A model generated the notes under the pieces. The model was not told the origin of the DNA and searched no databases. It saw nothing but the letters and a program-made list of their open reading frames with translations. This document shows, piece by piece, positions 1,135 through 23,312 of a stretch of 64,000 bases of DNA. The stretch is from Cyclobacteriaceae bacterium (lineage in GTDB: Bacteria; Bacteroidota; Bacteroidia; Cytophagales; Cyclobacteriaceae), in assembly GCA_965228955.1 (NCBI GenBank), contig OZ245848.1, positions 835,879-899,878 on the forward strand, written 5' to 3'. The first letter of the stretch is position 1. Each line of letters begins with the position of its first letter. The translations under genes and the position numbers were made by a program.

Positions 1135-1524
1135 ATGACTTTTACATCAAGAAAGCTTAAGTACGAATCAAGAAACATCGTTCAGGAACTACATGACTCA
1201 CTAACTGAGAACCAATTCTTCCTTGACCCCCAATTAAACATGAAGCAGGTCTGCAAATTAATCAACTGTAGTCCACGAAAACTCAGGAGTGTTCTCAAAG
1301 ATGAGATGCAGATGAAGTTTACAGATTTCGTCAATCACGCTAGAATCAACCATTTCCTTCTTATGGTGGAAAATGATACCCTCAGGAGAATGTCGATCTG
1401 GGGAATCGCCCAGGAATCAGGTTTTGGGACCAAGAATACTTTTTATGAGGCCTTCAAGAAGATCAAAGGAACCACTCCGGCTAATTACTTAAGGGAGCTG
1501 GAAGAGTTTAGAAAAGTAGGGTAG
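1135..1524 (+). CDS. AraC-family HTH domain protein (129 aa, DNA-binding domain only)
   Basis: A double HTH signature is present ('MKQVCKLINCSPRKLRSVLK' ... 'ESGFGTKNTFYEAFKKIKGTTPANY'). There is no N-terminal ligand domain. Confidence 0.75.
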   Translation: MTFTSRKLKYESRNIVQELHDSLTENQFFLDPQLNMKQVCKLINCSPRKLRSVLKDEMQMKFTDFVNHARINHFLLMVENDTLRRMSIWGIAQESGFGTKNTFYEAFKKIKGTTPANYLRELEEFRKVG

Positions 1525-1881: not shown

Positions 1882-3720
1882 ATGAGACTCACTTTTAACC
1901 TAGTAATTCTATCTCTATTTACACTTCTTATAAGTTGCGGAGAACCATCTGAAAAAGCCACAAGATATTATTTGGATGAAGAGAATTCTTTTATCAATAC
2001 CACAGACAGTATTCCACAAGTAATCATATCTAGTATTGTACCTATAGAATTAGATATAAATTTTGCGACACTTGACGAAGGTGGGAGTCATGCAACTTTG
2101 AATGGAGTTGCCAAGTTGGGAGCCGACATGGATGGTGATGGAATCAAGGAAATCATATTTGAGCAACTTACTGAGGATTACGATACGATATACGGAAAAA
2201 GATCGATCCTTCAACTCAGAAATGGTAGACTTAAGGAATTACTGAATGTAAGAGTCAATGTTAATAAGACAGCCTGTAATGATATTCTTGGGCGTGATCA
2301 GAAAATTTCATTTGATACAACCTCATTTGAAAGACCTACTGTTGTAGTAAGTGGTAGATATGGATATTCCGGAGGTATTAATTGTCAGGATTATGTCTTA
2401 AGTACCATGGAGTATTTCTACGATTTACCTCAAAATCAGGCTTATCCAAGACAGCAATATAACCTTTGCTCTGTGGATGGAAATAAACTTAATTTATCTA
2501 AATTTTATGCTTTTTCTCCATACAAAGTTCAGAATGCTATGGGTGCTAATTCACCTTATCATGGCATTTATAGCAGATTAAGTACTATTCAGGATTGCGA
2601 TAACATTGGAAACGGTTTGGAGTACCTGGAGAAAATATCTGGACTGAAATACCTGAATAGAAGCTCCAGAAATAAACGAGATGATTTACTTGATTACATC
2701 GGTGAAGAGTATCAAAACATTAATCCGGCTTTTGTAAAGTGGGCAAGCAATAACCTAATTCCTGATCCAGATGATAAGCAGGTTAATGGGTTTAGCTACA
2801 AGTGGCTATATGATTATGTATATAAGAATCAAACCAGACTGTTAGCTGTTGCACGTCTTCAGTTGCTTCTTGAGGGTAAAGAAACTGCGATAAAGACATA
2901 TGCACAAAGAGCCCATACGCTGTATTACGATGAAAATGAAGGTGTCAGGAGAAGAAGGGATAACTATAATGAATTTAACTATTACCTGGATCAGAAGCAT
3001 AACGCAGTTAATACCCTAAATGAAGACTTTAGCTTGGTTGAAGGTGGTTATGCAGAGCGAAACGACTATGGGTTCTGGGCACGTAGAATGCTTGATGGAT
3101 CTGATAAGGCCATTTGGGATGCGTTGGTTAAGATTTTTAATAACTACGATAAGGAATGGTATGAAGAAAATTTCGTTAATAAGAAGTGGAAAGGCATGAC
3201 GGATATTGCTCAAAATGAGTACGACAGCCTAAAACTGATTGCTGATCAAAAAGAAACAATTCTGGGACCAGATATGGTGCCAAGTGAGATGGCAGTACAA
3301 AATAATCTAGGTGTAGTTATTAATCTGGAAAATGGTGAAACAAAGGAGTACAAAAATGTTAATAGCGATGGGGAAAGCTATGCTCATTATACCATTGAAG
3401 GTTTATGGCCAAAGAAAAACAGTGTGATCGTTAATTATGGCGGTTGGGAATGGGGAGAAACATATGTTGTTGATCTGGCCGATGGAGAGGTTAAAGCGTT
3501 TACAGGTAATATTGAAACCAATGAAGAGGCTACTCTTCTTGCAGAGCAGGTTGAAGAGATGGACTTCACTGCAATGAATCTGTACTCCTGGTCTAATGGA
3601 CAATGGGTTAAATCTCAATCCTTCGAAGGAGTATATTTTTCTGGAGGTTTCTGGCATGAAGGTGAGTTTTATTTCAAGTCGGGAAAAAGCTTTCTGAAAT
3701 ATGGTAATGTCGAGTTGTAA
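1882..3720 (+). CDS. Orphan lipoprotein, 612 aa, no recognisable domain
   Basis: Signal peptide with lipobox 'LFTLLISCGE'. It is a long uninterrupted ORF with only short spurious antisense ORFs. Confidence 0.7.
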   Translation: MRLTFNLVILSLFTLLISCGEPSEKATRYYLDEENSFINTTDSIPQVIISSIVPIELDINFATLDEGGSHATLNGVAKLGADMDGDGIKEIIFEQLTEDYDTIYGKRSILQLRNGRLKELLNVRVNVNKTACNDILGRDQKISFDTTSFERPTVVVSGRYGYSGGINCQDYVLSTMEYFYDLPQNQAYPRQQYNLCSVDGNKLNLSKFYAFSPYKVQNAMGANSPYHGIYSRLSTIQDCDNIGNGLEYLEKISGLKYLNRSSRNKRDDLLDYIGEEYQNINPAFVKWASNNLIPDPDDKQVNGFSYKWLYDYVYKNQTRLLAVARLQLLLEGKETAIKTYAQRAHTLYYDENEGVRRRRDNYNEFNYYLDQKHNAVNTLNEDFSLVEGGYAERNDYGFWARRMLDGSDKAIWDALVKIFNNYDKEWYEENFVNKKWKGMTDIAQNEYDSLKLIADQKETILGPDMVPSEMAVQNNLGVVINLENGETKEYKNVNSDGESYAHYTIEGLWPKKNSVIVNYGGWEWGETYVVDLADGEVKAFTGNIETNEEATLLAEQVEEMDFTAMNLYSWSNGQWVKSQSFEGVYFSGGFWHEGEFYFKSGKSFLKYGNVEL

Positions 3721-3850: not shown

Positions 3851-6800
3851 ATGACTAATTACGCAAAAATTCTGTCCATTATGGTGGGTGTACTATTCAC
3901 ATGTGCCCATCTAAACTCATATTCTCAAACCAATAGCTACAAGTTTGACATTATTAATATAGACAATGGTTTATCTGATGGAACTGTATTTTGTTCCGTT
4001 GTTGACCAACATGGGTATCTGTGGATTGGAACATCCAAGGGTTTAAATAGATATGATGGCTACCAATCAACAATATTCCGGCATGAATCGGAAAACCCAA
4101 ATTCAATTATCGGTGATTATATTAATTGCCTGGCAGTTGACAAGTCTGGTAAAATATGGATTGGAACAAATGACGGCATCAGCGTTTTTGATTGGGAGAC
4201 AAATGACTTTATAAACTACTCTAATCAAATTGAAGGAGGTATTGTCAATGAAATACTCCCGGATAATAACGGAAAAGTTTGGATAGCATCCTCAAATGGC
4301 GGGCTATATCTTTTTGATGGAAAAGATTTCAAGTCATACAACACTGGCAATAGTAATCTCTCTTCCAATAAACTAATGTCTTTATACCTTGACGCATCAG
4401 ACAGGTTATGGTTGGGAACAGGCTCTACAGGAGTTGATATGTTTAATATTAATACAGCATCATTCACTCATTATCCATTTCGTAATGGCATTTCTGGAAT
4501 AGAAGTACGAGATATAACAGAAGATAGATCTGGTCAAGTTTGGGTTGGTGGAATGGGAACTGGGATCATGGTTTTAGATCCCATCAAAGGTGAATTCACC
4601 AATATAAAATTTGACACCAAAAAATATGGTGTCAACTCCAACGCAATTACCTCTTTGTTTAAAGATGATAAAGATAAAATCTGGATTGGCTCTGATGGGG
4701 GCGGTATAAAAGTATATGATCAAAACACTAAGGACATTGAATTTATTCAGAATGATGCCTTTGAGAGGAAAAGTCTTACAAGTAATGCTGTACTAAGTAT
4801 TACCGGAGATGGGATGGGTAATATTTGGATTGGGACTTATAAACATGGGCTTAACCGTTTCAGCCATTTATCCTCAAAATTCATTACCTACCGAAATAAG
4901 GTGAATGATGTGAATAGCCTAAGTAATAATAGTGTACTTGCAATGTGCGAGAAATCAGATGGAAACATTTGGATTGGTACTGATGGAGGAGGCTTGAACT
5001 TGTTTGATCCCAAAAACAATCAATTCAGTATTTATAAACATGGAGATTCCAAAAACTCACTAAGCTCAAATGTCATCAAAACTATTTATGAGGATAAGGA
5101 TGGTGTTTTATGGATGGGAACATATCTGGGAGGGTTAATCAGATTTGACCCAAAAACAGAGACTTTTCAGACTTTTATAAATGACCCTGAGAACCCACAG
5201 AGTATTGGTTCTGATATGGTCTGGGCTATTGAAGAAGATGAACAAGGTTTTTTATGGATTGGGCTACTAAGAAATGGCATTGATAGATTCGATCCAGGGA
5301 CTGGTGTTTTTAAGCACTATACTCACATAGAATCCGATAAAAACTCAATTGGCGCTGGTGACATTCGGACTATTCTCAGCGACAGTAAAGGAAATTTATG
5401 GGTAGGAACCGATGGAGGAGGCTTAGCTAGGTTTAATCCGGAGGAAGACAACTTTACCAGATACAGAAATGATCCTGGAAATACCAGTTCAATTCCTGGA
5501 GATGAAGTAAGAGTTATTTTTGAGGATAGTCAAAATAAGTTGTGGATTGGGACTGATAAAGGGTTCGGTCAATTCGATGTAAATGCCGAAAAATTCTATT
5601 TGTCAGAAGCCAATTCATCTTTGAGTAGTCTCGTAATTAGCGGAATTCTGGAAGATGAATCAGGTGAATTGTGGATTAGTGGGGATAAAGGAATCGCAAA
5701 AGTTGATCCAGGAACAAATTCAGTAAAGACTTATGATAAAAACGATGGTCTGCAAGGGAATGAGTTCAATTATGACGCAGCACTAAAGACAAGAAACGGT
5801 AACATGTACTTTGGTGGAATCAACGGTTTTAGCAAACTAATGCCCGATTTACTCGTCGAAAACCCAATCGACCCAAAAATACAGATAACCGATATTGCAG
5901 TATTTAATCAATCTATTGCTGTAGGTGATACATTGAATAATCGTGTGATCCTGGGTGAAAACCTGCCTTTCATTAATGAACTAACTCTCACTCACCGAGA
6001 GAATATCTTTTCTATAGAATTCGCAAGCCTGGATTTTACTGCACCAGGTAGGAATCAGTATAAATACATGTTAGAAGGTTTTGACATGGATTGGAATTAT
6101 GTGTCATCGGATGAACGGAAAGTAAGTTACATGAATCTATCTCCCGGAAATTATATGTTTAAAGCCACTGGGACTAATAGTGATGGAAAATGGTCTTCAG
6201 AAACCAGATCTGTAGAAATTAAAGTACTTACGCCCTGGTGGTCAACCTTTTGGTTTAGGGGGCTGGTGTTTTTGATGGTTGCTCTCAGTTTGTTTCTTAC
6301 TTATAAATGGCGGTTGATGATTTTAAGGAATAAAAATAGAATTGAACAGAAGCTGAAGCAGGAAAGAGCCATTGAATTAAAGAAGATGGTGAAAATACTT
6401 AAAAGGAACAGTCAGCAACTTTCTACTTCCGGAGATCAGCTGAAATCGAAATCAGGTCTTCTAGCATCAGATGCCGAAAAACAAAATCAAACTGCGAGGT
6501 ATATTGAGGCGGATGTGGAAAGCATGGCTGGTTACATTAAGAAAAATACTGAGAATGCACTTGTTACCAATAATATCAGCAAATCAGCACTTGAAGAGCT
6601 TGAAGGGATTCATTCTGCAACAAGGAGTAATATTGAAGAGATTAATTCAATTTCTGAAAAAGTATCAATTCTTGAAGAGATTTTTAATCAAACTAATATC
6701 CTAAGCATAAACGCTTCAATAGAGGCAGCAAAAGCCGGAGACTATGGAGGAGGATTTGCTGTAATTGCGGGTGAAGTAAGAAAATTGGCACAAAAGAGTG

Positions 6801-7108
6801 CTCTTGCTTCAGAGGAAATAATGAACTCTGCTAAAAAGGGAGTAGCTGAAACTGGAAAGGTAGGAAAGATGATCAATGATTTTATTCCTGAAGTCAGAAG
6901 ATCGGCTCAATTGATACAAGAGATTTCTCAAAGCAGTGAACATCAAAATGATGCAATAGAAAATATCAATTCATCTCTTAAAGAGTTCTTTAAAATTTCC
7001 AGAAAAAACTCAGCCATCTCCTCTGAGATTCACTCAATATCAAGTGAATTAGATGCACTGGCCAAAGAATTGAATGAACAGATGATGGAATTGGAAGTGG
7101 AAGTCTGA
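3851..7108 (+). CDS. Double beta-propeller + Y_Y_Y extracytoplasmic sensor fused through one TM helix to a methyl-accepting chemotaxis protein (MCP) signalling domain
   Basis: N-terminal signal/anchor; more than 12 repeats of the 'LWIGT..GL.RFD' two-component-regulator propeller motif. A Y_Y_Y-like segment follows ('[16 protein letters not shown]...[17 protein letters not shown]'), then TM '[21 protein letters not shown]'. The C-terminal coiled coil carries the MCP hairpin tip '[38 protein letters not shown]'. Confidence 0.85.
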
Positions 7109-7422: not shown

Positions 7423-8013
7423 ATGAAAAACGTAATGAAATTAGTAGTTGCATTGGTAATAGTTATCGGAGCAACAGGACAAGCATTCTCAAAGAACGAT
7501 TCTACTTTCTTCGCACCAAGTTTCGAGGTAAGAAACGCATCAGAAGGAAAATTCGAATTGTGGTACAGAACAGGTGAGACTGAAAAAGTTAAAATCAAAC
7601 TTTTAAACGATAAAGGTCAGACTTTGTACCAGGAGTGGGTTAGATCTAAAGCTGGATTTGTTAAGCCGTTTGATCTTTCTAAGCTTAACTCCGGAACTTA
7701 TACAATGCAGGTTCTTAACGGTGAGAGCGTACTAAGTGAAACTATCACTTTACAATCAGCTACTGAGCAGTTCGCAGGACTTATCGAATTATCTGAAGTA
7801 GCAAACTCAAAGAAATTCATTCTTGACATTGACGATACAGTTGCTACTGATCTTGAAATGTACATCGTAAACAAGGATGGAGAAGTTCTTTACAACGAGA
7901 CTACAGTTTCAGGAACTAAGGTTTACAACCTAAGCAACATTGAAATGAAAGAAGTATCAGTATTGATCTATAGCAAAGGACAAATTGTTAAGTCATCTGA
8001 TATCAAATTATAA
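7423..8013 (+). CDS. Small secreted protein composed of two T9SS C-terminal-domain-like beta-sandwich repeats
   Basis: Signal peptide 'MKLVVALVIVIGATGQAFS'. Two internal segments ('VKIKLLNDKGQTLYQE...LSKLNSGTYTMQVLNGESVLSETITL' and 'LEMYIVNKDGEVLYNE...VSVLIYSKGQIVKSSDIKL') resemble Por-secretion-tail domains. It has its own near-consensus -7 box and a strong terminator. Confidence 0.6.
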   Translation: MKNVMKLVVALVIVIGATGQAFSKNDSTFFAPSFEVRNASEGKFELWYRTGETEKVKIKLLNDKGQTLYQEWVRSKAGFVKPFDLSKLNSGTYTMQVLNGESVLSETITLQSATEQFAGLIELSEVANSKKFILDIDDTVATDLEMYIVNKDGEVLYNETTVSGTKVYNLSNIEMKEVSVLIYSKGQIVKSSDIKL

Positions 8014-11118: not shown

Positions 11119-11727
11119 TCAAAACACTTCTTTCAGATCTATCTCTAAACCGGGAAGTGTATGAACTTGTACCTTATCCTGATTCACATAAGTCTGTGGC
11201 AAGTTGTACTTACCTTCAGCCAATGTGAATACTTCAACGATTTCTTCTTTTGGGTAAATCACCCAATATTCTTTTACTCCATTCTCCTCGTATATCTCAC
11301 GTTTTATGGTGAGGTCTTTCTTCGCGGTGGAAGGAGATAAAATTTCTACAATCAAATCAGGCGCTCCAACACACCCTTTTTCATCAAGCTTGTCTTGATT
11401 GCAGATTACCATAATGTCTGGTTGAACCACAGTATAGATTTTATCATCTGGATCACCCTTTTTGTTTGGTAGTCTTACATCAAAAGGAGCATAATATGCT
11501 TTACATGATTTTCCTTTCACATAATCATATATAGTACTTGATAGGGATATCGCAATTCCCTGATGCTTCCTGGTTGGAGCAGGAGACATATCGAATATCT
11601 TCCCTTTAATCAACTCTACCCTTTCATCAAAAGTCCACTTTAAGTAGTCCGCATAGCTATAAGGTACCGTCGGCTCTTCTGTCAACAATTCCTCCAAAGT
11701 TTTTTCTTCTTGTTTGTATTCGCTCAT
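11119..11727 (-). CDS. Uma2 (DUF820) family PD-(D/E)xK endonuclease-like protein
   Basis: Characteristic 'APDLIVEILSPSTAKKDLTIKREIYEENGVKEYWVIYP' core. Confidence 0.75.
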   Translation of the reverse strand: MSEYKQEEKTLEELLTEEPTVPYSYADYLKWTFDERVELIKGKIFDMSPAPTRKHQGIAISLSSTIYDYVKGKSCKAYYAPFDVRLPNKKGDPDDKIYTVVQPDIMVICNQDKLDEKGCVGAPDLIVEILSPSTAKKDLTIKREIYEENGVKEYWVIYPKEEIVEVFTLAEGKYNLPQTYVNQDKVQVHTLPGLEIDLKEVF

Positions 11728-11770: not shown

Positions 11771-11930
11771 GAAGTTGGAAGTCGGAAGACCGGAGACCGA
11801 AGTTTTGTTTTTCCTTCAGTTTCAATTTCCTGCTATCCATTTTCTTAATTTTTAAATTAATTGTTCAGCTTCTGACTCCTATATCAATTTCTATTTACTT
11901 CGGTCTTCCGGCTCCCGTCTTCGGTCTTAC
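11771..11930. repeat. Family A element, copy A1 (GA-word arm + conserved core + complementary CT-word arm)
   Basis: The arm 'gaagttggaagtcggaagaccggagaccgaagtttt' (11771-11806) faces 'acttcggtcttccggctcccgtcttcggtcttac' (11897-11930). The core contains 'cttcag...ctatccatt'. Confidence 0.8.
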
Positions 11931-12694
11931 TTATACTTCTCCAATTCCTTCTTCGTATACTCCGACAAAACAAGCTTACCACTCATTCCTGCTCTTTCAT
12001 CGAGTAATTGGTCCCAGTTTTCGCATCCTTCCCAAAGAATATCTTTGATCAGTTTTCTTGCTTCTGGGTTCGTGTTAACAAGCTTTTCTGCTAACTCAGT
12101 GATTGCAGTATCCATTTCTTCCGCTGAATCGCTTAAGTGGTAATAAAGCCCTTTTTCCTTTGCCCACTCAGCAGTTTGGAATTCACTTGCGTTGATTGTT
12201 AGTTGAGAAAATGCTGAAAGTCCAACTTTTCTTTGAACTGCAGGTCCAACTACAAATGGTCCAATTCCAACCTGTAATTCACTTAACTTGACAGAAGCGA
12301 ATTTTGTGGCAAAGCAATAATCTACTGCAGAAGCAACACCAACACCACCACCCACAGCTTTTCCTTGTACTCTTCCTATGATGATTTTTGGACATTTTCT
12401 GCAGGCATTGATCACATTAGCAAAACCTGAGAAGAATTTCTTTCCGGTTTCATAATCATCTATTGTGATCAATTCAGTGAAGCTTGCTCCGGCGCAGAAT
12501 GTTCTTTCTCCACCACTTTTCAAAATAATCACTTCAACCATTGGATCATTACCAGCTTCGGTAATGGTTTGAGCTAGTTTTGCTAGCACACCACTTGGTA
12601 GCGAATTGTGTGAAGGATGGAAAAAGGTGATTGTTCCAATTCCTCCTTTTCTTTCCAGGCTTACATAAGCCTCTTGTTCCTTAACTTCAGCCAT
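11927..12694 (-). CDS. Enoyl-CoA hydratase/isomerase (crotonase) family protein, PaaF-like candidate
   Basis: Crotonase fold motifs ('FCAGASF', 'GRVQGKAVGGGVGVASAVD'). It overlaps the paaZ stop by 8 nt. Confidence 0.8.
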   Translation of the reverse strand: MAEVKEQEAYVSLERKGGIGTITFFHPSHNSLPSGVLAKLAQTITEAGNDPMVEVIILKSGGERTFCAGASFTELITIDDYETGKKFFSGFANVINACRKCPKIIIGRVQGKAVGGGVGVASAVDYCFATKFASVKLSELQVGIGPFVVGPAVQRKVGLSAFSQLTINASEFQTAEWAKEKGLYYHLSDSAEEMDTAITELAEKLVNTNPEARKLIKDILWEGCENWDQLLDERAGMSGKLVLSEYTKKELEKYK

Positions 12695-15200
12695 TTATAT
12701 CTTCTTCTTTAATCAGGTTAAATGCGTCAAAATGATGATGGATGTGCTTTCTGTGCATCAAATCCCAGTGTTCTTTATCCAGAGGACCAAATACTGAATT
12801 GTTGTGAATCGCATCTGGGTTTTCTTTGTAGTACTGTTGGAATTCATCATATGCTACCAGGAATGCCTCTTTTGCTTCCTTCAAACTTCCAAATCTTAAA
12901 TCTTCAGTAGTATCCTTTTTTAGATCTGGATGAGGATATGTTTCTGGCATGTGATAGTAGTTCCAAAGTGAATCCTGGTACTTTTCAAGTTTCTCTTCTG
13001 GTGTTACAACATTAGTTTGATACTTACCAACAGCCATGTGCATTGACCATTCCAAATGCTCAACCATATGCTGAGGTCCCATCATTCCCCATTTATTTTT
13101 GGAATCATCAGTTAGTCTTCCTAGTAGTTTTTCAATGTTCTTTCTGTTGAATTCTACAAATGGAGATTTCTTTTGAACCAATGTCAGGATTGTTCCCATT
13201 GCTGCCAGTTCTTCCTCCTGATCGTAAACTTCGACGAACCATTTCACAACTCCTGAAGGATGTTCTTTTCCTCTGCTATCTCTTTCAACTTTTTCCTTAC
13301 ATGTTAATCTTACCTGAATGGTGTCATTGTGGTAGATTGGTTTCAGGAATCTGATTTCATCAAGTCCATAGTTTGCCGATACCGGGCCTTTGTTAGGGTA
13401 AACAAAAAGTCCAGCTGCAGCTGCTAATATGAAGTATCCATGTGCAGCTCTTTTTTCAAATATTGTTCCCTGAAGAGATGTAATATCTGTATGAGCGTAG
13501 AAATGATCCCAAGTGAGGTTTGCGAAATTGATGATGTCAGAATCCGTTACTGTTCTCTTATGCGTCAGTAGAGACATTCCTGGTTGGATGTCTTCAAAAT
13601 GATATGAGAAAGGATGATTTGGTGATTCTGTATAGTCAGCTCCTTGTTGGAATATTCCGGTAACTGCTGTGATGGTGCTTGGTGTTCCCTGGATAGCACA
13701 TCTTTGTAGATAGTGCTCAACACCTCGCATTCCACCCATTTCTTCACCGCCTCCAGCTCTACCCGGACCACCGTGAACAAGTGTAGGAAGAGGAGAACCG
13801 TGACCTGTACTAAGTTTTGCGTTTTCTCTATCTAATACTAAAATTCTACCATGATGACTTGCAGCACCAACTACAAAGTCTCTGGCGATTTTCTTATCAA
13901 AAGTGGAGATTGAACAGCATAATGAGCCTTTACCCATTTTAGCTAATTCAATAGCATCATGCATGTCTTTGTAAGGTACAATTGTACTTACAGGACCGAA
14001 TGCCTCTACTTCGTGAACTGCTTTATTCTTATGAGGATCTTTTTCCAATAATAGAATTGGGCTTAAGAATGCTCCCTTTTCAGAGTCAGCATCCATTACA
14101 TCAACCTTATCAAGATTTCCGTAAACGATCTCAGCAGTAGCTGCTAATTCTTTTACTCTGTCTCTAACTTCCTGTACCTGATCCATACTTGCCAAGGCAC
14201 CCATTCGGACTTCTTTACTTTCAGGATTTCCAATTACTGTTCTTTCTAAAGACTTGCCTAAAGCAATTTGAACATCTTCAATCAGGTTCTCAGGAACAAT
14301 AATTCTTCTGATAGCAGTACATTTCTGACCACATTTGACAGTCATTTCTTTCTTGACTTCCTTTATGAAAAGATCAAACTCAGGAGTTCCAGGAACTGCA
14401 TCTTCGCCGAGAACTGAACAGTTTAATGAGTCAGCTTCCATATTGAATGGAACAGCTTCATCAATGATTCTTGGGTTACTTTTAAGCATTCTACCAGTGG
14501 TGGCAGAACCGGTAAAGGTTACCACGTCTTGAGACTCAACTGTATCGAGAATGTTTCTAGCAGAACCGCAGATCAATTGAAGTGCTCCCTCTGGTAGAAT
14601 TCCTGATGCTATGATTTCTCTAACAACCGCTTCAGTAAGGTAGGAGGTAGCTGTTGCTGGTTTTACTACAGCAGGAACTCCAGCCATCCAGTTAACAGCA
14701 CATTTTTCAAGCATTCCCCAAACCGGGAAGTTAAATGCGTTTATATGGATTGCAACACCTTCTTTAGGAACCATGATATGATGCCCCATGAACTTTCCAC
14801 CTCTTGATAGGTCGATTGGAGCTCCATCTACATGGAAAGATTGATTTGGGAATAATTTTCTTAATGAAGCGTTGGCAAACAGATTACCAAATCCTCCTTC
14901 TATATCGATCCAGCTATCAACTTTAGTAGCACCTGTTTGATAACTGATTTTGTAGAAATGATCTTTCTTTCTTACCAGGTACAAAGCAAGCTTTTTAAGC
15001 ATATTACCTCTTTCCTGGAATGTCATTTTTCTCAATGCCGGACCACCTACGTTTCTACCGTAGTTTAGGATTTCACCAAAATCTAGTCCGGTAGTGGAGG
15101 CATGGTGTATCACCTCTCCATTAACAGCATTGTAAATAGGCTGGCCATCACCTGTGCCATTTACCCATTCTCCGCTTACGTAATTTCCTAATTTGTTCAT
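12687..15200 (-). CDS. paaZ: PaaZ: bifunctional aldehyde dehydrogenase / MaoC-hotdog oxepin-CoA hydrolase with an extra ~150-aa C-terminal DinB/DUF1569-like extension
   Basis: N-terminus 'MNKLGNYVSGEWVNGTG' and an ALDH fold. The hotdog segment is 'DIINFANLTWDHFYAHTD...GYFILAAAAG'. The C-terminal tail carries 'FGPLDKEHWDLMHRKHIHHHFDAF'. Confidence 0.88.
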   Translation of the reverse strand: MNKLGNYVSGEWVNGTGDGQPIYNAVNGEVIHHASTTGLDFGEILNYGRNVGGPALRKMTFQERGNMLKKLALYLVRKKDHFYKISYQTGATKVDSWIDIEGGFGNLFANASLRKLFPNQSFHVDGAPIDLSRGGKFMGHHIMVPKEGVAIHINAFNFPVWGMLEKCAVNWMAGVPAVVKPATATSYLTEAVVREIIASGILPEGALQLICGSARNILDTVESQDVVTFTGSATTGRMLKSNPRIIDEAVPFNMEADSLNCSVLGEDAVPGTPEFDLFIKEVKKEMTVKCGQKCTAIRRIIVPENLIEDVQIALGKSLERTVIGNPESKEVRMGALASMDQVQEVRDRVKELAATAEIVYGNLDKVDVMDADSEKGAFLSPILLLEKDPHKNKAVHEVEAFGPVSTIVPYKDMHDAIELAKMGKGSLCCSISTFDKKIARDFVVGAASHHGRILVLDRENAKLSTGHGSPLPTLVHGGPGRAGGGEEMGGMRGVEHYLQRCAIQGTPSTITAVTGIFQQGADYTESPNHPFSYHFEDIQPGMSLLTHKRTVTDSDIINFANLTWDHFYAHTDITSLQGTIFEKRAAHGYFILAAAAGLFVYPNKGPVSANYGLDEIRFLKPIYHNDTIQVRLTCKEKVERDSRGKEHPSGVVKWFVEVYDQEEELAAMGTILTLVQKKSPFVEFNRKNIEKLLGRLTDDSKNKWGMMGPQHMVEHLEWSMHMAVGKYQTNVVTPEEKLEKYQDSLWNYYHMPETYPHPDLKKDTTEDLRFGSLKEAKEAFLVAYDEFQQYYKENPDAIHNNSVFGPLDKEHWDLMHRKHIHHHFDAFNLIKEEDING

Positions 15201-15227
15201 TTTCAGGTCGTTTATTGCCCGTAGGGC

Positions 15228-15471
15228 AAGTTGGAAGTCGGAAGACCGAAGACGGAAGTGTTATTAGTGCTTCCAGGTTCGATCTTTCAATCCATTTATG
15301 TTTTGTAGACGGAAGTCGGAAGACCGGAGACCGAAGTTTCGATAATGCTTCGATATCCAATTCTGACTATCCATTTACTATTTATCTTTAATTTTCTAGT
15401 TACTCAAATACTATTAACTACAATCTAGCCTTCCATACTTCGGTCTCCCGTCTCTGGTCTTCCGACTTCTA
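15228..15471. repeat. Family A element, copy A2 (duplicated GA arm and core, single CT arm)
   Basis: GA arms at 15228-15260 and 15306-15340. The cores carry 'gcttc...tccattt'. The CT arm 'acttcggtctcccgtctctggtcttccgacttcta' lies at 15437-15471 and includes the thiolase stop codon. Confidence 0.8.
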
Positions 15472-16677
15472 CGCTTTCTCAATCACAGCTGCATAACCCT
15501 GACCAACACCCACACACATTGTTACTAATGCATATTTCTTATCGGTCAAGCTTAATTCAAGGGCAGCACTGTACATAATTCTTGCACCTGTCATTCCTAG
15601 CGGGTGGCCAATTGCTATTGCTCCACCGTTAGGATTTATTCTTGGATCATCATCTGATAATCCCCACTCTCTGATGCAAGCAAGACTTTGAGCAGCAAAT
15701 GCTTCGTTTAGCTCAATTACGTCCATGTCTTCCATTTTCAAGCCAGCTCTTTCGAGAGCTTTATTGGAAGCTCCAACAGGTCCTATTCCCATTATTCTTG
15801 GTTCAACTCCTACTACTGCTGAGCTTACAATTCTTGCTAATGGCTTAAGATCATATTTTGAAACCGCATCAGATGAAGCTACGATTGTTGCTGCTGCGCC
15901 ATCGTTAAGTCCACTGGAATTTCCTGCTGTTACAGTTCCACCTTCTTTTCTGAATGCTGCTCTTAGTTTTGAAAGTCCATCTTCAGTTGTATGAGGTTTA
16001 ATAAACTCATCATGATTGAAAATGATCGGGTCCGCTTTTCTTTGAGGAATTTGAACTGGAACAATCTCTTTAGCTAATCTCCCTTCATGGTCTGCATTTC
16101 CAGCTTTTTGCTGAGATCTCAATGCAAAATGATCTTGGTCTGCTCTGCTAATTTTGTATCGTTCAACAAGGTTTTCTGCAGTCTCGCCCATGCTTTCAGT
16201 GCCATAAAGCTCGTGCATTCTCTTATTCACAAATCTCCACCCAAAACTGGAATCAAACATCTGAGAATCCTGGCCAAATGGGCTTGAAGCTTTTGAGATC
16301 ACCCAAGGGCCTCTTGTCATATTTTCAACTCCTCCGGCGATGAATAAATCACCATCTCCAGCTTTGATAGCTCTGTTGGCCTGGATGATTGCTGAAAGTC
16401 CTGAAGAACATAATCTGTTTACTGTTTCTCCTGGAACAGAAAATGGAAGTCCAGCAAGTAGGGAAGACATTCGGGCAACATTTCTGTTATCTTCACCAGC
16501 CTGATTAGCACAGCCCATGATTACATCTTCATAAGCTTCCATTGGAATATTTTTATTCCTGCTTACTAATTCTTTGATTACCAATGCTCCTAAATCGTCA
16601 GTTCGCACAGCACCTAAAGTGCCTTTGAATTTTCCGATTGGAGTACGTATGCCGTCAATTATGAATGCGTCTTTCAT
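15469..16677 (-). CDS. paaJ: 3-oxoadipyl-CoA / acetyl-CoA C-acyltransferase (thiolase)
   Basis: Thiolase motifs 'NRLCSSGLSAI', 'GNSSGLNDGAAA', 'NGGAIAIGHPLG', 'CVGVGQG'. Confidence 0.9.
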   Translation of the reverse strand: MKDAFIIDGIRTPIGKFKGTLGAVRTDDLGALVIKELVSRNKNIPMEAYEDVIMGCANQAGEDNRNVARMSSLLAGLPFSVPGETVNRLCSSGLSAIIQANRAIKAGDGDLFIAGGVENMTRGPWVISKASSPFGQDSQMFDSSFGWRFVNKRMHELYGTESMGETAENLVERYKISRADQDHFALRSQQKAGNADHEGRLAKEIVPVQIPQRKADPIIFNHDEFIKPHTTEDGLSKLRAAFRKEGGTVTAGNSSGLNDGAAATIVASSDAVSKYDLKPLARIVSSAVVGVEPRIMGIGPVGASNKALERAGLKMEDMDVIELNEAFAAQSLACIREWGLSDDDPRINPNGGAIAIGHPLGMTGARIMYSAALELSLTDKKYALVTMCVGVGQGYAAVIEKA

Positions 16678-16686
16678 ATGTTTTCT

Positions 16687-16990
16687 TAGTTGGAAGTCGG
16701 AAGACCGGAGACCGAAGTTTTGTGTTGCTTCAGTAATCGGTTCTAACTGTCCATTGATTTTTTATTCTATTAAATTGCGATACGTCATTCCTGACGAAGC
16801 GAAGCGTAGATCAGGGATCCCAATAACTTTTGCAATCCTTGAAATCGTGAGTACTTCACTTATCGGGATTCCGGATATTTCTTCCATTTCATTACAGAAA
16901 TTCCGGAATGACGTCATCTATTATTATTTAAGTCATCTAATTTTTAACCTCCAACTTCTAACCTCCAACTTCTAACTTCCAGCTTCTATT
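16687..16990. repeat. Family A element, copy A3, carrying a nested family B element
   Basis: GA arm 'tagttggaagtcggaagaccggagaccgaagttttgtg' (16687-16724) and core 'gcttcag...ctgtccatt'. Family B sits at 16765-16915. The CT-word arm 'aacctccaacttctaacctccaacttctaacttccagcttct' lies at 16946-16987. Confidence 0.75.
16765..16915. repeat. Family B structured repeat, copy 2
   Basis: Aligns base for base with 10255-10410, apart from a short indel near the 5' edge and about 15-20 substitutions concentrated in the central loop. Confidence 0.75.
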
Positions 16991-16991
16991 C

Positions 16992-17402
16992 TCAAATTTC
17001 ACTCGATGTTCTATAAACAGTACCTCTAAAAAGCCCTACTACCTCACCGCTACTCTCATTGCTCACTTCTACATCGTAGGTTCCGCTTTTGTTTCCTTTT
17101 ACTAGTTCGTTTGCTTTAGCTATCAGGATATCTCCTTCTTTTGCTTGTTTTGAGTAGGTCATACTTCCATTCATTGAAACACTTAGTCTACCATATGAAT
17201 TTGAAGCAAATGCAAAGGCGCTATCTGCAAACGCAAATGATACTCCTCCATGAAGTATCCCAAAACCATTGAGCATCTCTTTTCTAACAGTCATTTTCAA
17301 AGTGCAGTTTCCTTCAGAGATAGAGATTAGTTCTACACCCATCCATTGGCTGTAGTAATCCTTGTCCATCATTCGGTCATACACTTCTTTTGGACTGCTC
17401 AT
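16992..17402 (-). CDS. paaI: PaaI-type hotdog-fold acyl-CoA thioesterase
   Basis: 136 aa with 'GILHGGVSFAFADSAFAFA'. It has a 4-nt overlap with the upstream dehydrogenase gene. Confidence 0.85.
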   Translation of the reverse strand: MSSPKEVYDRMMDKDYYSQWMGVELISISEGNCTLKMTVRKEMLNGFGILHGGVSFAFADSAFAFASNSYGRLSVSMNGSMTYSKQAKEGDILIAKANELVKGNKSGTYDVEVSNESSGEVVGLFRGTVYRTSSEI

Positions 17403-18586
17403 GAATTTACTGATTCTTCCTGATAAAAATTAGAATGCTCTGTTACCATATCTCTAAGTAATGGACTGCATCTGTATCGCTCTTCGTGATATCTATTGAA
17501 TAGATTATCCAAAAGAGAAACACATCTGTCAATTCCAATCTCATCTGCCCATTTTAAAAGACCCTTAGGATAATTAACTCCAGTTGTCATGGCAGTGTCG
17601 ATATCATCTCTGCTGGCAATTCCAAAATGCAATGCATCAGCAGCTTCATTGATTAACATAGCCACGATTCTGTCAACAATCATATGCCCATGCATCTCAT
17701 CAGAGTCTGGTTCTGGTTTTTGTGAACCTTCACTGTAATCGTAATAACCTTTGCCAGTTTTCCTTCCGAGAAGTCCGGCTTCCATCATTCTTTTCTGAGT
17801 AAACGATGGTCTATATCTTGGGTCACCGAAGAATGCATTGAATACCGTTTCCGTTACGGTGTAGTTTATATCGTTTCCAATGAAATCCATCAACTCAAAA
17901 GGTCCCATACGAAATCCTCCGATTTCTTTCATGGCCCAGTCGATTGTTGGCATATCGGCAATTCCCTCATCATAAATTCTAAGGGCTTCACCATAAAATG
18001 GTCTCGCCACTCGGTTTACAATGAACCCAGGAGTGTCTTTTGCAAGGACTGTCAACTTACCCCAGCTATCGATGATAGACTTGGCTTTTTGTGTTGTTCC
18101 TTCAGATGTTTGAATTCCTGGAATAATTTCAGCCAGTTTCATCAAAGGAACTGGATTGAAAAAATGGATACCTATAAATCGTTCTGGAGCACTCACAGCG
18201 GAAGCTAAAGATGCAATCGAGAGGGATGAAGTGTTTGAAGCAATAATGCATTCTTTACTTACATTTCTATCTAACTCCTCAAAAACAGTTCTTTTGATTT
18301 CTGGATTCTCAACAATTGCTTCGATAACAAGGCTGCAATCAGCCAGACCTTTAATTTCTGAAGCGTAAGTAATGTTATTGAGAATGTCAGATTGCTTTGA
18401 GCTATCTATTTTTCCTTTTTCTACTAATCTATTAAGTATTTTTTGGAGTTTGGATTTGCTATCTTCAATGGCTGCAGTATTGTTATCATAAACAACAACT
18501 TGCCAACCAGCAGTAGCAGCAATTTGGGCAATTCCTCGTCCCATTGTACCTGATCCAATTACACCAGCTATATTGTGATTGCTCAT
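17399..18586 (-). CDS. paaH: 3-hydroxyacyl-CoA (3-hydroxyadipyl-CoA) dehydrogenase
   Basis: Rossmann motif 'GVIGSGTMGRGIAQ' and 3HCDH N- and C-terminal domains. Confidence 0.85.
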   Translation of the reverse strand: MSNHNIAGVIGSGTMGRGIAQIAATAGWQVVVYDNNTAAIEDSKSKLQKILNRLVEKGKIDSSKQSDILNNITYASEIKGLADCSLVIEAIVENPEIKRTVFEELDRNVSKECIIASNTSSLSIASLASAVSAPERFIGIHFFNPVPLMKLAEIIPGIQTSEGTTQKAKSIIDSWGKLTVLAKDTPGFIVNRVARPFYGEALRIYDEGIADMPTIDWAMKEIGGFRMGPFELMDFIGNDINYTVTETVFNAFFGDPRYRPSFTQKRMMEAGLLGRKTGKGYYDYSEGSQKPEPDSDEMHGHMIVDRIVAMLINEAADALHFGIASRDDIDTAMTTGVNYPKGLLKWADEIGIDRCVSLLDNLFNRYHEERYRCSPLLRDMVTEHSNFYQEESVNS

Positions 18587-19383
18587 TACTTACCTTTAAA
18601 ATTCGGCTTCCTCTTTTCTATAAATGCTTTTACTCCTTCAGAGTAATCTTCAGTTTCACTGGCAGCAATTTGAAGTCTGTTTTCCACCTCAAGTTGTTGC
18701 TCCAGGTTGTTTACTAGCGAAGAATTGAAGGCTTCTTTGGTATACGCCAACCCTTGAGTTGGCATATTGGCCATTCGTAGTGCTATTTTATTTACATTCT
18801 CTTCGAATTCCGCATCGCCAAAGTATTTGTAAATCATTCCGAGTGACTCAGCTTCCTGAGCAGATACTTTGTCTCCCAACATCGCTAATGCAGATGCTTT
18901 TTGGAAACCTACTAGCCTCGGGAGAAAGAATGTTCCTGCACTATCGGGTATTAAACCGATTCCGCTAAAAGCTTGGATGAAAGATGCATTCTCATGTGCA
19001 ATAACTATATCACAAGCAAGAGCAATGTTAGCTCCAGCACCAGCCGCAACTCCATTCACCTTAGCAATTACCGGTTTCATTAGCGCCCTTATCTTTCGAA
19101 TAATGGGCGCATAATGTTCCTCTAATATAGATTTGAATCCAGGCATTGCTTCCGGAGAGGTAACCTCTACCAGATCCTGACCGGCACAAAAGGCCTTGCC
19201 TTCACCGGTTATTAGAACGCATCTGATCTGCTCATCAGCTGCGCATTCATCTAATGATTTTTGGAATTGTAGTGCCAGTTCTCTGGTGACACTGTTGAAT
19301 GCTTTTGGCCTATTGAGTTTAATGGTGGCAACTCCGGCTTCTTTTGAAAAAATAATTGGCTCCATCGAGTCGTTTATATGCAT
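18586..19383 (-). CDS. paaG: Enoyl-CoA hydratase/isomerase, PaaG-like (1,2-epoxyphenylacetyl-CoA isomerase candidate)
   Basis: 'ATIKLNRPKAFNSV...RCVLITGEGKAFCAGQDL' closely follows the PaaG N-terminal pattern. Confidence 0.8.
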   Translation of the reverse strand: MHINDSMEPIIFSKEAGVATIKLNRPKAFNSVTRELALQFQKSLDECAADEQIRCVLITGEGKAFCAGQDLVEVTSPEAMPGFKSILEEHYAPIIRKIRALMKPVIAKVNGVAAGAGANIALACDIVIAHENASFIQAFSGIGLIPDSAGTFFLPRLVGFQKASALAMLGDKVSAQEAESLGMIYKYFGDAEFEENVNKIALRMANMPTQGLAYTKEAFNSSLVNNLEQQLEVENRLQIAASETEDYSEGVKAFIEKRKPNFKGK

Positions 19384-19859
19384 TTGAAGTAATCAAAAGG
19401 TTCCAGGCAATCCTGGCATTTAAAAAGTGCTTTGCAAGGTGTTGATCCAAACTGGCTTACCATTTCGGTATTGGTTGAACCGCATTGAGGACATTTGATA
19501 ATCCTTTCACCATCCAGCAATGCTTTTTTGTCCATGGTTTCATTCATAGGAGGAGCAATGCCGTACTTTTCTAACTTTTGCTTACCATTTTCTGAAATCC
19601 ATTCGGTTGTCCATGGTGGAGATAATACAGTGTCTACTTTCGCTTCTATATTATGAGATTTGAAAGCGTTTACTATATCTTCTTCGATCACATCCATTGC
19701 CGGGCAACCAGAGTAAGTAGGGGTGATGGTGATCAACACATGATCAGCTTTTTGTTGGGCGTCTTTCACAATGCCCATATCCAAAATAGACAATACAGGA
19801 ATTTCCGGATCAGAAACTGATTCTAGAATTTCCTGTATTTGGTTGTCTATCTTGATCAT
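19374..19859 (-). CDS. paaD: 1,2-phenylacetyl-CoA epoxidase subunit PaaD
   Basis: A DUF59-like N-terminus plus the C-terminal Cys cluster 'KCPQCGSTNTEMVSQFGSTPCKALFKCQDCLEPFDYFKCI'. Confidence 0.9.
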   Translation of the reverse strand: MIKIDNQIQEILESVSDPEIPVLSILDMGIVKDAQQKADHVLITITPTYSGCPAMDVIEEDIVNAFKSHNIEAKVDTVLSPPWTTEWISENGKQKLEKYGIAPPMNETMDKKALLDGERIIKCPQCGSTNTEMVSQFGSTPCKALFKCQDCLEPFDYFKCI

Positions 19860-19884
19860 TGTTTGGGTTGTTTTTATTTGATAA

Positions 19885-20637
19885 TCACCAGGTCATATTT
19901 GGGTATGTCCTTTGCATGTATTGCAATTCTGTTAATATGAATCCCATGTGCTCGGAGTGAATTCCATTTTTCCCTCCTTGCTGATAAGGATCATATTCTG
20001 GTATTGTTAATGTTGCTTCTGCGACAACTGCCTCAATATCTTTTTTGTATTGCTCGTGAATAGCGTTTAGATCAGCTCCAATTCCCTCTTCTTTCGCCCA
20101 TTTCTCAATTTCTGATTCTTCGAAAAGCTCACCAACATATGCCCATAAGTAATCCAGTGCTTCCTGCGTTTTTTGATGACTTTCTTCAGTCCCATCACCA
20201 AGTCTTTTTACCCACTCAGATGAAAATCTATGATGGTAACTGACTTCTTTAATCGACTTTGCGGCAATGGCAGCTATCGTTTTGTCTTTGCTATTCTTTA
20301 ATTGCTCAAGCAGTGGTAGGTGGTAAGCATCAAAAAGGAACTGTCTTACTATGATGTAAGCAAAGTCTGTATTTGGCTGCTCAACCAAAAGAACATTTTT
20401 GTATTCTCTCTCTGTTCTCAAGAAAGCAACAGTATCTTCATTAAAGTTTTCACCTTTTACTTTTGCAGCATATTGGCAATAACTTCTCGTCTGACCGTAT
20501 AAATCCAATGAAATATTGGTCAAAGCGATATCGGTTTCCAGGCTTGGCCCGTGACCGCATAGCTCCGAAAGTCTGTGACCCAGAATCATGCTGTTATCGC
20601 TTAATTGAAGTATATATTGATATAAATTATCGTTCAT
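19885..20637 (-). CDS. paaC: 1,2-phenylacetyl-CoA epoxidase subunit PaaC
   Basis: A ferritin-like structural subunit whose size (250 aa) and position between paaB and paaD fit PaaC. Confidence 0.88.
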   Translation of the reverse strand: MNDNLYQYILQLSDNSMILGHRLSELCGHGPSLETDIALTNISLDLYGQTRSYCQYAAKVKGENFNEDTVAFLRTEREYKNVLLVEQPNTDFAYIIVRQFLFDAYHLPLLEQLKNSKDKTIAAIAAKSIKEVSYHHRFSSEWVKRLGDGTEESHQKTQEALDYLWAYVGELFEESEIEKWAKEEGIGADLNAIHEQYKKDIEAVVAEATLTIPEYDPYQQGGKNGIHSEHMGFILTELQYMQRTYPNMTW

Positions 20638-20696
20638 TTTTTTGGCTTTTTAGCTACTAGCTTTTTGGCTTTTTAGCTTTTGGCTTACTTGAAATT
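20638..20696 (-). repeat. Word-repeat spacer (AGCCAAAA/AGCTAAAA on the sense strand) filling the whole paaB-paaC junction
   Basis: The plus strand reads 'tttttttggctttttagctactagctttttggctttttagcttttggcttac'. Confidence 0.6.
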
Positions 20697-20981
20697 CTAT
20701 ATGTGCTTTACCTCGTCGGGTAAGTCGTAGAATGTTGGGTGTCTGTATACTTTGTCAGCTGCTGGTTCGAATATTTCACCGGCTTGCTCTGGATTAGATG
20801 CAGTAATGTTTTCTGATTCTACAACCCAGATGCTTACGCCTTCCATTCTTCTGGTGTATACATCTCTTGCGTTTTCTATCGCCATGGTAGCATCAGCAGC
20901 ATGTAAACTTCCAACATGTCTGTGCTCTAAACCATTCTTACTTCTAATGAAGACTTCAAAAAGTGGCCAATTCTTGCTCAT
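20697..20981 (-). CDS. paaB: 1,2-phenylacetyl-CoA epoxidase subunit PaaB
   Basis: 94 aa with 'WPLFEVFIRSKNGLEHRHVGSLHAAD...YTRR'. It lies 3 nt downstream of paaA. Confidence 0.9.
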   Translation of the reverse strand: MSKNWPLFEVFIRSKNGLEHRHVGSLHAADATMAIENARDVYTRRMEGVSIWVVESENITASNPEQAGEIFEPAADKVYRHPTFYDLPDEVKHI

Positions 20982-20984
20982 ATC

Positions 20985-21941
20985 TTATACTGCTTCTTTA
21001 AGTGTTTGCTTAGCTTTTTTCTCTGCGTGTGCTACAGCGGCATCTCTAACCCACTTACCTTTATCATAAGCAGTCTTTCTCGCGTGTAGTCTTTCTTTGT
21101 TACAAGGTCCGTGACCTTTTACAACTCTCCAGAATTCATCCCAATTGATCTCTCCAAAGTCATAGTGACCTCTCTCTTCATTCCATTTAAGATCTTTATC
21201 CGGAATGGTTAAACCAAGAAATTCAGCCTGAGGAACAGTCTGGTCAACGAATTGCTGACGAAGTTCATCGTTGGTCTTTCTCTTAATTTTCCATTTCATT
21301 GATTGCTCAGTGTGAGTAGATGCTTCGTCAGTTGGACCAAACATCATTAATGAAGGCCACCACCATCTGTTTAGTGCGTCCTGAGCCATTTCTTTTTGTA
21401 CTTCTGTGCCTTTAGATAGAGTAAGAAGGATTTCGTAACCTTGTCTTTGGTGGAAACTTTCTTCTTTACAAATTCTCACCATAGCCCTTGCATACGGACC
21501 GTAAGAAGTTCTTGTAAGCATCACCTGGTTCATGATTGCTGCACCATCAACTAACCATCCAATTGCACCGATATCGGCCCAGGTTACTGCCGGGTAGTTG
21601 AAAATACTTGAATATTTCGCTTTCCCTGAATGAAGTTGCTCGAAAAGTTCATCTCTAGAGATACCTAGAGTTTCAGTAGCACTGTATAAATACAATCCGT
21701 GTCCACCTTCATCCTGCACTTTTGCTAATAATGCTACTTTTCTTCTGAGACTAGGAGCTCTTGTAATCCAGTTGCCTTCCGGAAGCATACCAACAATTTC
21801 TGAATGAGCATGCTGTGAAATCTGTCGGATGTGAGTTTTTCTATATTTCTCAGGCATCCAATCTTTAGGTTCAATGTTCTCTCCACGATCTATTCGTGCC
21901 TGGAACTGCTCTTCTAAATCAATGATTTCTTTTTCTGACAT
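20985..21941 (-). CDS. paaA: 1,2-phenylacetyl-CoA epoxidase catalytic subunit PaaA
   Basis: Diiron ferritin-like motifs 'QDEGGHG' and '[10 protein letters not shown]'. Confidence 0.93.
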
Positions 21942-21948
21942 ATTTTTT

Positions 21949-22083
21949 GAAGTTAGAAGCTGGAAGACCGAAGACCGAAGTTTTGTGACTTCTGACTTTA
22001 GTACCTCTGCACTCCATTTAAGTATTCAATTTCTTTTATGAGACTTGGACTTCTGTCTTCCGACTTCCGTCTGCGGTCTTCTT
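21949..22083. repeat. Family A element, copy A4
   Basis: GA arm 'gaagttagaagctggaagaccgaagaccgaagttttgtg' (21949-21987) and core 'acttctgac...cactccattt'. The CT arm 'acttctgtcttccgacttccgtctgcggtcttc' (22049-22082) abuts the paaE stop. Confidence 0.8.
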
Positions 22084-23152: not shown

Positions 23153-23165
23153 TTCTGGGAGCTAA

Positions 23166-23215: not shown

Positions 23216-23250
23216 GAAAGGAATTATATGAGCGGTTGACGTTTTGAAAT

Positions 23251-23283: not shown

Positions 23284-23312
23284 CTGAACTAAATACTACT
23301 AGTGTAGATTTC

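Follow-up and report, generated by a model that had tools for sequence, protein, structure and literature searches.

The window analysed here is a 64-kb stretch of the genome of a Cyclobacteriaceae bacterium (contig OZ245848.1), in which an intact open reading frame (ORF) at 3851–7108 on the forward strand encodes a fusion protein of 1085 aa plus stop. A double beta-propeller and a Y_Y_Y domain are joined in this protein, by a single transmembrane (TM) helix, to a methyl-accepting chemotaxis protein (MCP) signalling hairpin. The fusion is probably an orphan transmembrane chemoreceptor of the 34H class; by analogy with known sensors it would detect an oligosaccharide and signal to a CheA/CheW array encoded elsewhere. 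An earlier note made from the sequence had described a gene of this position and architecture, and the intact ORF, the Pfam matches and a structural model confirm both.

The periplasmic half is composed of recognisable HTCS parts, HTCS being hybrid two-component systems. Pfam places Reg_prop in 13 stretches of the fusion (E=3.3e-60) and Y_Y_Y (PF07495) at residues 729–793 (E=2.5e-18; 66 bits, cutoff 26.6), and there are 12 copies of the strict LW[IV]G[TS]-type motif. In an AlphaFold2 model based on 19 homologues, with a mean predicted local distance difference test score (pLDDT) of 81.8, 14 four-stranded blades make up two 7-bladed propellers, and an Ig-like domain with 8 strands lies at residues 677–792. 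The whole periplasmic module is held in common with BT4663, the heparin/heparan-sulfate HTCS of Bacteroides thetaiotaomicron (4A2L/4A2M). Residues 6–799 match residues 3–787 of the BT4663 periplasmic sensor (4A2L) over its full length (E=3.3e-126), and superposition of the model on 4A2L gives a TM score of 0.90 (normalised to the target) and a root-mean-square deviation of 3.6 Å, at 32% identity. The ectodomain also matches BT3049 (3V9F) and BT4673 (3OTT/3VA6), which have the same module of two 7-bladed Reg_prop propellers and Y_Y_Y, followed by a TM helix. The sensor is therefore of the BT4663 type, as had been proposed from the sequence. While the double propeller with Y_Y_Y that defines the periplasmic part of an HTCS is present, the cytoplasmic part is different. 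Proteins of the BT4663 type carry HisKA, HATPase_c, REC and an AraC helix-turn-helix (HTH) in the cytoplasm, where the fusion has an MCP hairpin after the TM helix. None of HisKA, HATPase_c, REC or AraC-type HTH was detected in the polypeptide by Pfam, therefore it is not an HTCS. Given the homology to BT4663 and the existence of polysaccharide-degrading relatives, the obvious guess, and the most likely ligand, is an oligosaccharide released from a polysaccharide. The N-terminal segment may serve as a signal peptide that is cleaved off, or it may anchor the protein in the membrane.

The TM segment is followed by 266 residues, and there is no other strongly hydrophobic internal segment in the fusion. 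Neither HAMP nor HAMP_2 is matched in Pfam, even at E<=1. The first heptad follows the TM helix after only about 21–24 residues, so that a HAMP domain of about 50 residues cannot fit. The linker found in its place is the least conserved segment of the protein (29% identity), with pLDDT <50 at residues 827–847 and a low-confidence break at 832–840. Beyond the linker, MCPsignal (PF00015) is found at residues 910–1068 (E=1.1e-23; 84.4 bits against a gathering score of 34.6), and the cytoplasmic part aligns end to end with residues 262–512 of Escherichia coli Tsr, which is the entire kinase-control module (E=3e-22). Two long helices are modelled at residues 841–961 and 968–1084, and the fusion has the long antiparallel helical hairpin with a conserved tip that is expected of an MCP. 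Hydropathy, Pfam, the Tsr alignment and the model thus agree with the earlier description of one TM helix, no HAMP domain and an MCP hairpin. Of the four Pfam families suggested at that time for a search, Reg_prop, Y_Y_Y and MCPsignal are significant and HAMP is absent; the lack of a significant MCPsignal match, which the earlier note had named as refuting, did not occur.

The heptad class of the hairpin, also raised in the earlier note, was assigned using an alignment of the fusion family, the MCPs of Bacteroidota che clusters and E. coli Tar and Tap. The fusion has exactly one 7-residue gap per arm when compared to Tsr or Tar. Its hairpin is therefore one heptad per arm shorter than those of Tsr and Tar, which are 36H, and on this length and gap pattern it is assigned to the 34H class with 17 heptads per arm. 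From the tip to the C-terminus there are 121 aa in the window protein and 117–121 aa in all 19 of the short family members examined. The complete kinase-control hairpin and the tip motif N-x4-N-x3-E-A-A-[RK]-A-G-x2-G-x-G-F are common to the fusion and Tsr/Tar, however the latter have a HAMP domain, a four-helix-bundle sensor and an NWETF tail, all of which are missing from the fusion. By its domain and hairpin the fusion belongs to the MCP superfamily, although its sequence fails the methylation-site consensus.

An assembly artefact, in which a hybrid two-component sensor had been joined to an unrelated MCP near 6.2–6.4 kb, was put forward in the earlier note as a possible origin of the gene. 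Nothing speaks for this except the odd combination of domains. The GC content is flat over 6.0–6.5 kb, where the join was suspected. A 6,489,409-bp contig (NCBI and ENA) has the identical protein, starting at Met-11, and the same contig carries the window's FtsK and 9 of 10 housekeeping proteins of the window verbatim. A sister copy that is 96% identical, differing at 42 residues, comes from independent assemblies. Full-length homologues of 38–46% identity are present on many independent contigs, and a single continuous match covers Y_Y_Y, TM and MCP in dozens of independent proteins. An assembly chimera is excluded on these grounds, to the point of near certainty. The start codon is ambiguous, since the public gene caller chose Met-11 (position 3881) rather than residue 1; the public entry (P0123) corresponds to residues 11–1085. 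Exact look-ups of the window protein and of P0123 in the contig index gave no record.

The architecture is not confined to this genome. When the Y_Y_Y-TM-MCP junction was searched against 1.84 billion 50%-identity representatives, 60 full propeller-MCP fusions, plus fragments, were found among the best 150 matches, giving at least 60 clusters at 50% identity. These fall into at least three geometric subclasses. The window protein belongs to short A, which has about 140 aa from TM to tip and about 119 aa (119 ± 2) from tip to end. In short B the C-terminal arm is about 107 aa and the tip has a G-[KR]-S-F sequence. The long subclass has about 283 aa from TM to tip, HAMP_2/HAMP modules and longer arms. 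Members of the long class, such as that of Marinoscillum pacificum MRN461 (L005) and P0068 and P0055, have the same Reg_prop/Y_Y_Y ectodomain and MCP as the window fusion and are likewise orphan genes in Bacteroidota-type contexts. They differ in having HAMP_2/HAMP, in arms that are each at least 21 residues longer, and in canonical tips with E/D391 and R/K394 (Tsr numbering). The Marinoscillum gene was found in a scan of a genome collection using the full-length family alignment and generic patterns (W[ILV]GTDGGGL and the MCP tip), which also gave the Bacteroidota che clusters described below. A metagenome scan with a family-specific C-arm probe returned one 1.2-kb contig only. Short B (P0283–P0322) is a second HAMP-less propeller-MCP subclass with the tip A-G-x-H-G-[KR]-S-F, and 16 of 17 members have Ser where the glycine that precedes Phe (Tsr G395) is otherwise universal.

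Among the best 120 homologues of the propeller/Y_Y_Y sensor, about 30 are joined to MCPsignal. The other outputs are HisKA/HATPase/REC/AraC, GGDEF, SpoIIE phosphatase, sigma-54 AAA+, PAS/GAF kinases and a class-III cyclase. The earlier statement that this sensor normally feeds HisKA/HATPase/REC/AraC or GGDEF outputs is therefore correct and can be extended, and in terms of sequence the sensor is a promiscuous input module. The MCP combination is less rare than had been implied, since the fusion is found in 60 or more clusters and is already annotated by pipelines; the JGI automatic annotation of members is 'ligand-binding sensor domain-containing protein/methyl-accepting chemotaxis protein'. 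In NCBIfam, the fusion stays below the cutoff of every model. Full-text literature searches found no paper on the propeller/Y_Y_Y and MCP combination and no functional study. The possibility raised before, that the architecture would prove both common and functionally described, is thus half realised: it is recurrent and machine-annotated, yet functionally uncharacterised.

Conservation within the family is concentrated at the hairpin tip, which has 72% identity compared to 34–49% elsewhere in the protein, the linker excepted. Propeller 1 is the most divergent region other than the linker, with a mean of 34% identity. In the sequences compared, purifying selection is strongest at the tip. Short A shows no variation at the residues equivalent to N381, G390, G393, G395, F396 and E402 of Tsr, and 40 of its 41 sequences have E385; the window protein has all seven. 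With the exception of Tsr positions 391 and 394, every other tip residue is invariant or nearly so across short A. In Tsr, the rest of the tip forms the trimer contacts and the CheA/CheW interface.

Possible partners for such a tip exist in the phylum. Complete che clusters were found in Alkalitalea saponilacus DSM 24412 (L029), in a Cyclobacteriaceae metagenome-assembled genome (MAG; L017) and in a Bacteroidota MAG (L011). The MCPs of these clusters (L017:4694-5935, L029:8789-10855 and L011:9152-10855) match the gap pattern of the fusion against Tar and are therefore 34H. In the literature 34H is a minor class that is attributed to F8 systems; the 34H receptor of Pseudomonas syringae is in an F8 cluster and is the only pentapeptide-bearing receptor of that organism (PMC11253619; bioRxiv 10.1101/2022.05.07.491037). 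Che transcripts from a Cytophagales MAG have also been listed in a metatranscriptome paper (PMC12875742). These clusters weaken the earlier hint of a lineage without a Che pathway. The receptors of F8 clusters (such as P. syringae PSPTO_0912) and of the Bacteroidota clusters resemble the fusion in hairpin length class and gap pattern. They differ from it in that they are che-cluster genes with HAMP, EE/QE pairs, AGEHGKGF tips and usually a pentapeptide-like end, none of which the fusion has. The three cluster MCPs have C-terminal tails of about 55 residues ending in EFEKF, DFQRF or EYENF, like the CheR/CheB-tethering pentapeptide (NWETF in Tar). When the cluster CheAs were ranked against the Cyclobacteriaceae CheA, there was no clear grouping with the Pseudomonas clusters. 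Near the L017 cluster are a ParA-like ATPase, a NIT-domain kinase and CheX. The output and role of these Bacteroidota che clusters, in hosts of non-flagellated type, appear undescribed.

A number of observations weigh against the reading as an oligosaccharide receptor that signals through CheA and CheW. The first group concerns the genes themselves. CheA, CheW, a CheY-like receiver, CheR, CheB and CheD are absent from the window by Pfam, in a scan of all 58 window ORFs of at least 120 aa, and by phmmer, for which E. coli and Bacteroidota Che proteins served as queries. This makes the fusion the sole chemotaxis-related gene of the window, in agreement with the earlier note. No che gene is present in the approximately 10 kb past the right edge of the window, which on the sister-strain contig holds housekeeping genes only, or within 10 kb of the fusion in eight further genomic contexts, in which the fusion is an isolated gene without a conserved neighbour. 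The fusion therefore lies outside any che cluster in 9 of 9 contexts, while MCPs of the same class do sit in Bacteroidota che clusters. A CheA profile made from these clusters gave 5516 matches, the best 120 of which all score at least 987 bits; the labelled organisms among these 120 are almost all Bacteroidales, Bacteroidota or Cyclobacteriaceae, with one 'Thiohalospira sp.'. None of the best 120 is on the fusion-bearing chromosomes of 6,489,409, 6,534,358 and 5,872,887 bp, nor on a 566,121-bp contig or the large contigs of the host's FtsK relatives, which counts only weakly since it covers 120 of 5516 matches. There was no overlap between the accession ranges of the named CheA matches and those of the fusions MBN2520692, HEX3006900 and MCR9252533. 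Literature searches for Che genes in Reichenbachiella, Fulvivirga and Marinoscillum gave nothing relevant.

The second group concerns the protein. It ends with the last heptad and has neither a tail nor a pentapeptide. At the position of Tsr 391 an acidic residue is present in 94% of ordinary MCPs (n=72) and 94% of long-class fusions (n=36), but in only 63% of short A (n=41); at Tsr 394 a basic residue is present in 94%, 97% and 44%, respectively. The window protein has D in place of E391 and G in place of R394. The methylation pairs at sites 1–4 are EQ, EE, EQ and QE in Tar, whereas those of the window protein are EK, RY, ES and SE, and the strict consensus [ASTG][ASTG]xx[EQ][EQ]xx[ASTG][ASTG] has no match in it. 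The MCPs of the che clusters retain EE/QE at sites 2–4. E1059, equivalent to Tar E491 at site 4, is conserved in 17 of 18 short-A members, and no other canonical site glutamate is conserved. Finally, the class of ligand is drawn from homology to one characterised sensor.

These observations could be explained if the host has neither CheA nor CheW and the MCP-type hairpin uses another cytoplasmic partner or a non-Che complex, with a non-canonical output. Such a partner would fit the nine contexts without a nearby che gene, the eroded methylation pairs, the missing HAMP and pentapeptide, and the lack of a CheA on fusion-bearing chromosomes among the best 120 matches. It would also fit the two relaxed tip positions; E391 of Tsr is important for ternary-complex assembly, and a non-canonical partner therefore has to be considered. 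An early census saw no MCPs in Bacteroidetes (PMC1183210), so that Che is not universal in the phylum. However, the remainder of the tip is invariant across proteins that are otherwise 38–46% identical, which is hard to explain without the canonical partners, and the length of the hairpin is exactly that of the MCPs in Bacteroidota che clusters. Orphan MCP genes are normal in Che-positive bacteria, and the CheA negative extends to the best 120 of 5516 matches. A non-Che partner is considered unlikely on this evidence, although it is the most substantial of the alternatives. It is rather more doubtful still that the 6.49-Mb chromosome lacks CheA and CheW and that the short-A family has been re-wired to a non-Che partner, which would constitute a new transmembrane glycan-signalling pathway on a chemoreceptor scaffold in non-flagellated, gliding Bacteroidota.

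The host was placed using its FtsK, which locates it in the Cytophagales near 'Cyclobacteriaceae' MAGs and Reichenbachiella, in keeping with the earlier assignment to the bacteroidetes. This FtsK is 67–76% identical to those of 'Cyclobacteriaceae bacterium' MAGs, Reichenbachiella spp. and Fulvivirga, and 81% identical to that of a 6,534,358-bp chromosome (L001) carrying a fusion homologue, P0013. P0013 is only 42% identical to the window fusion and is in a completely different neighbourhood, therefore either receptor turnover is fast or the two are non-orthologous paralogues. This suggests lineage-specific turnover of propeller-MCP sensors. Such quick evolution of the sensor, together with the loss of adaptation sites and the partial relaxation of the tip, is what might be expected if the fusion were a relic or a non-signalling membrane protein, in which the propeller binds glycans or acts as a scaffold in the periplasm and the hairpin is a mere dimerisation stalk. 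Against this, the 1085-codon ORF is intact, and only 42 residues differ between the protein and its 96% identical sister copy. A constant hairpin geometry of 119 ± 2 residues per arm is kept across dozens of clusters at 50% identity. Conservation in the protein peaks at the tip, and for a mere stalk the reverse would be expected. A relic or stalk is accordingly very improbable.

With the fusion read as an orphan 34H chemoreceptor, its function can be sketched by analogy. The periplasmic sensor would have been recruited from the BT4663-type HTCS family. A dimeric double-propeller/Y_Y_Y ectodomain would bind a periplasmic ligand, most likely an oligosaccharide, and by analogy with BT4663 the ligand may bring the membrane-proximal Y_Y_Y domains, and with them the two TM helices, to a different spacing or angle. 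Without a HAMP domain, the motion would pass via the helical linker of about 21–24 residues straight into the four-helix hairpin bundle. The conserved tip may then modulate a core complex of CheA and CheW whose genes would lie elsewhere on the 6.49-Mb chromosome. The predicted partner is F8-like, with a gene cluster of the CheY-CheA-CheW-MCP-CheR-CheD-CheB type that other Bacteroidota possess, and in a non-flagellated Cytophagales bacterium the output might be control of gliding reversals or some other cellular function. Having no pentapeptide tether and lacking most methyl-accepting pairs, the fusion probably adapts poorly alone, and adaptation might be borrowed from pentapeptide-bearing, cluster-encoded 34H receptors in the same array. 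The low-abundance receptors of E. coli likewise depend on other receptors in the array for adaptation. The earlier suggestion of a glycan or surface input into a Che-like or non-canonical pathway is thus retained in part: homology and the cluster relatives favour Che, and glycan sensing is suggested by homology.

Little is understood of the way in which non-flagellated Bacteroidota that degrade polysaccharides locate their substrates, and to our knowledge the best-studied gliders are without Che genes. In the propeller-MCP family a chemoreceptor output is coupled to the one sensor type that is known, in Bacteroides, to read the breakdown products of glycans, and the family occurs in relatives of algal-polysaccharide degraders such as Reichenbachiella. 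If the fusion signals to the Che clusters of Bacteroidota, it would offer a testable entry to 'glycan taxis', or glycan-controlled behaviour, in gliding bacteria, as well as a natural example of a HAMP-less chemoreceptor driven by the scissor-type motion of an HTCS sensor. Should a Che partner be lacking, the system would be something newer still. In either case the ectodomain-plus-TM module is well suited to ligand screens with chimeric receptors. The coordinates of the fusion gene, its parts and the comparison clusters are given in Table 1.

Table 1. Features of the propeller-MCP fusion (window positions) and che clusters of other Bacteroidota (contig label and positions).
Feature	Position	Strand	Evidence and remarks
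Complete fusion gene	3851..7108	+	ORF and Pfam; alternative start 3881
N-terminal hydrophobic segment, residues 1-25	3851..3925	+	hydropathy 1.39 over residues 1-19; model helix 3-21
First 7-bladed Reg_prop propeller, residues ~30-345	3938..4885	+	Pfam, model, superposition
Second 7-bladed Reg_prop propeller, residues ~346-665	4886..5845	+	Pfam, model, superposition
Y_Y_Y Ig-like beta-sandwich, membrane-proximal, residues ~670-795	5858..6235	+	Pfam 729-793; model strands 677-792
Single TM helix, residues ~797-819	6239..6307	+	highest hydropathy in protein; model helix 800-831
Short basic linker in place of HAMP, residues ~820-840	6308..6370	+	no HAMP match; Tsr alignment from ~842
MCP hairpin, N-terminal arm, residues 841-961, ~17 heptads	6371..6733	+	Tsr alignment, hairpin alignment, model
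Hairpin-tip motif '[35 protein letters not shown]', residues 949-983, turn 962-967	6695..6799	+	hairpin alignment
MCP hairpin, C-terminal arm, residues 968-1085, ~17 heptads	6752..7105	+	hairpin alignment, model
Codon for E1059	7025..7027	+	family alignment of methylation positions
che cluster, Cyclobacteriaceae MAG	L017:272-15302		Pfam; CheY-CheA-CheW-MCP-CheR-(small soluble HisKA/HATPase kinase)-CheD-CheB
che cluster, Bacteroidota MAG	L011:3601-16914		Pfam; same order as L017; STAS protein nearby
che cluster, Alkalitalea saponilacus	L029:110-14583		same core order; small histidine kinase after CheB, no CheD identified

The fusion gene is flanked by AT-rich spacers of 130 bp and 314 bp. Promoter-like sites are no more common than in shuffled sequence (12 found, 15.7 expected) using a sigma-70 model, which is ill-suited to Bacteroidota. 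Terminator-like sites exceed expectation in a consensus scan against shuffles (7 found, 1.9 expected), however none of the seven marks the 3' end of the fusion gene on the forward strand. Directly upstream, on the same strand and across the 130-bp gap, is a 612-aa ORF (1882-3720, +) that has no Pfam, NCBIfam or PDB match and whose exact sequence has no record in the contig index. It was rejected as a part of the system, not being conserved next to fusion homologues. At 1135-1524 (+), 2.3 kb upstream of the fusion, is a 129-aa protein consisting only of an AraC-type HTH (HTH_18). Since an AraC HTH is the usual output domain of propeller-type HTCS, this protein might be left over from such a system or be a split partner; fusion homologues do not have it as a conserved neighbour.

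Downstream of the fusion, a 196-aa protein at 7423-8013 (+) matches DUF3244 (28.3 bits, cutoff 25). Its matches to Por_Secre_tail (25.8 bits, cutoff 27) and TIGR04183 (21 bits, cutoff 23) are below threshold, and the evidence from a C-terminal sorting domain for a type IX secretion system in the window is therefore marginal. Of the two indications of this system given in the earlier note, the PorT-like protein is an OMP_b-brl_2 protein at 61.9–62.6 kb, and the sorting domain is marginal. The ORFs of the window otherwise include a phenylacetate-catabolism (paa) cluster, an RND efflux operon and housekeeping genes. A 359-aa protein at 35817-36896 (-) has a C-terminal class-III adenylate/guanylate cyclase domain (31 bits, cutoff 21.9), an N-terminal part of about 170 residues without assignment, and no NCBIfam match. 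The paa cluster at 11927-23906 (-) contains a PaaZ-like Aldedh and MaoC fusion, a thiolase, a 4HBT thioesterase, a 3-hydroxyacyl-CoA dehydrogenase and enoyl-CoA hydratases, along with PaaD, PaaC, PaaA, a PaaE-type reductase and a TetR regulator. Between this cluster and a hexapeptide transferase gene, at 11119-11727 (-), is a Uma2-family putative restriction endonuclease (E=2.3e-37).

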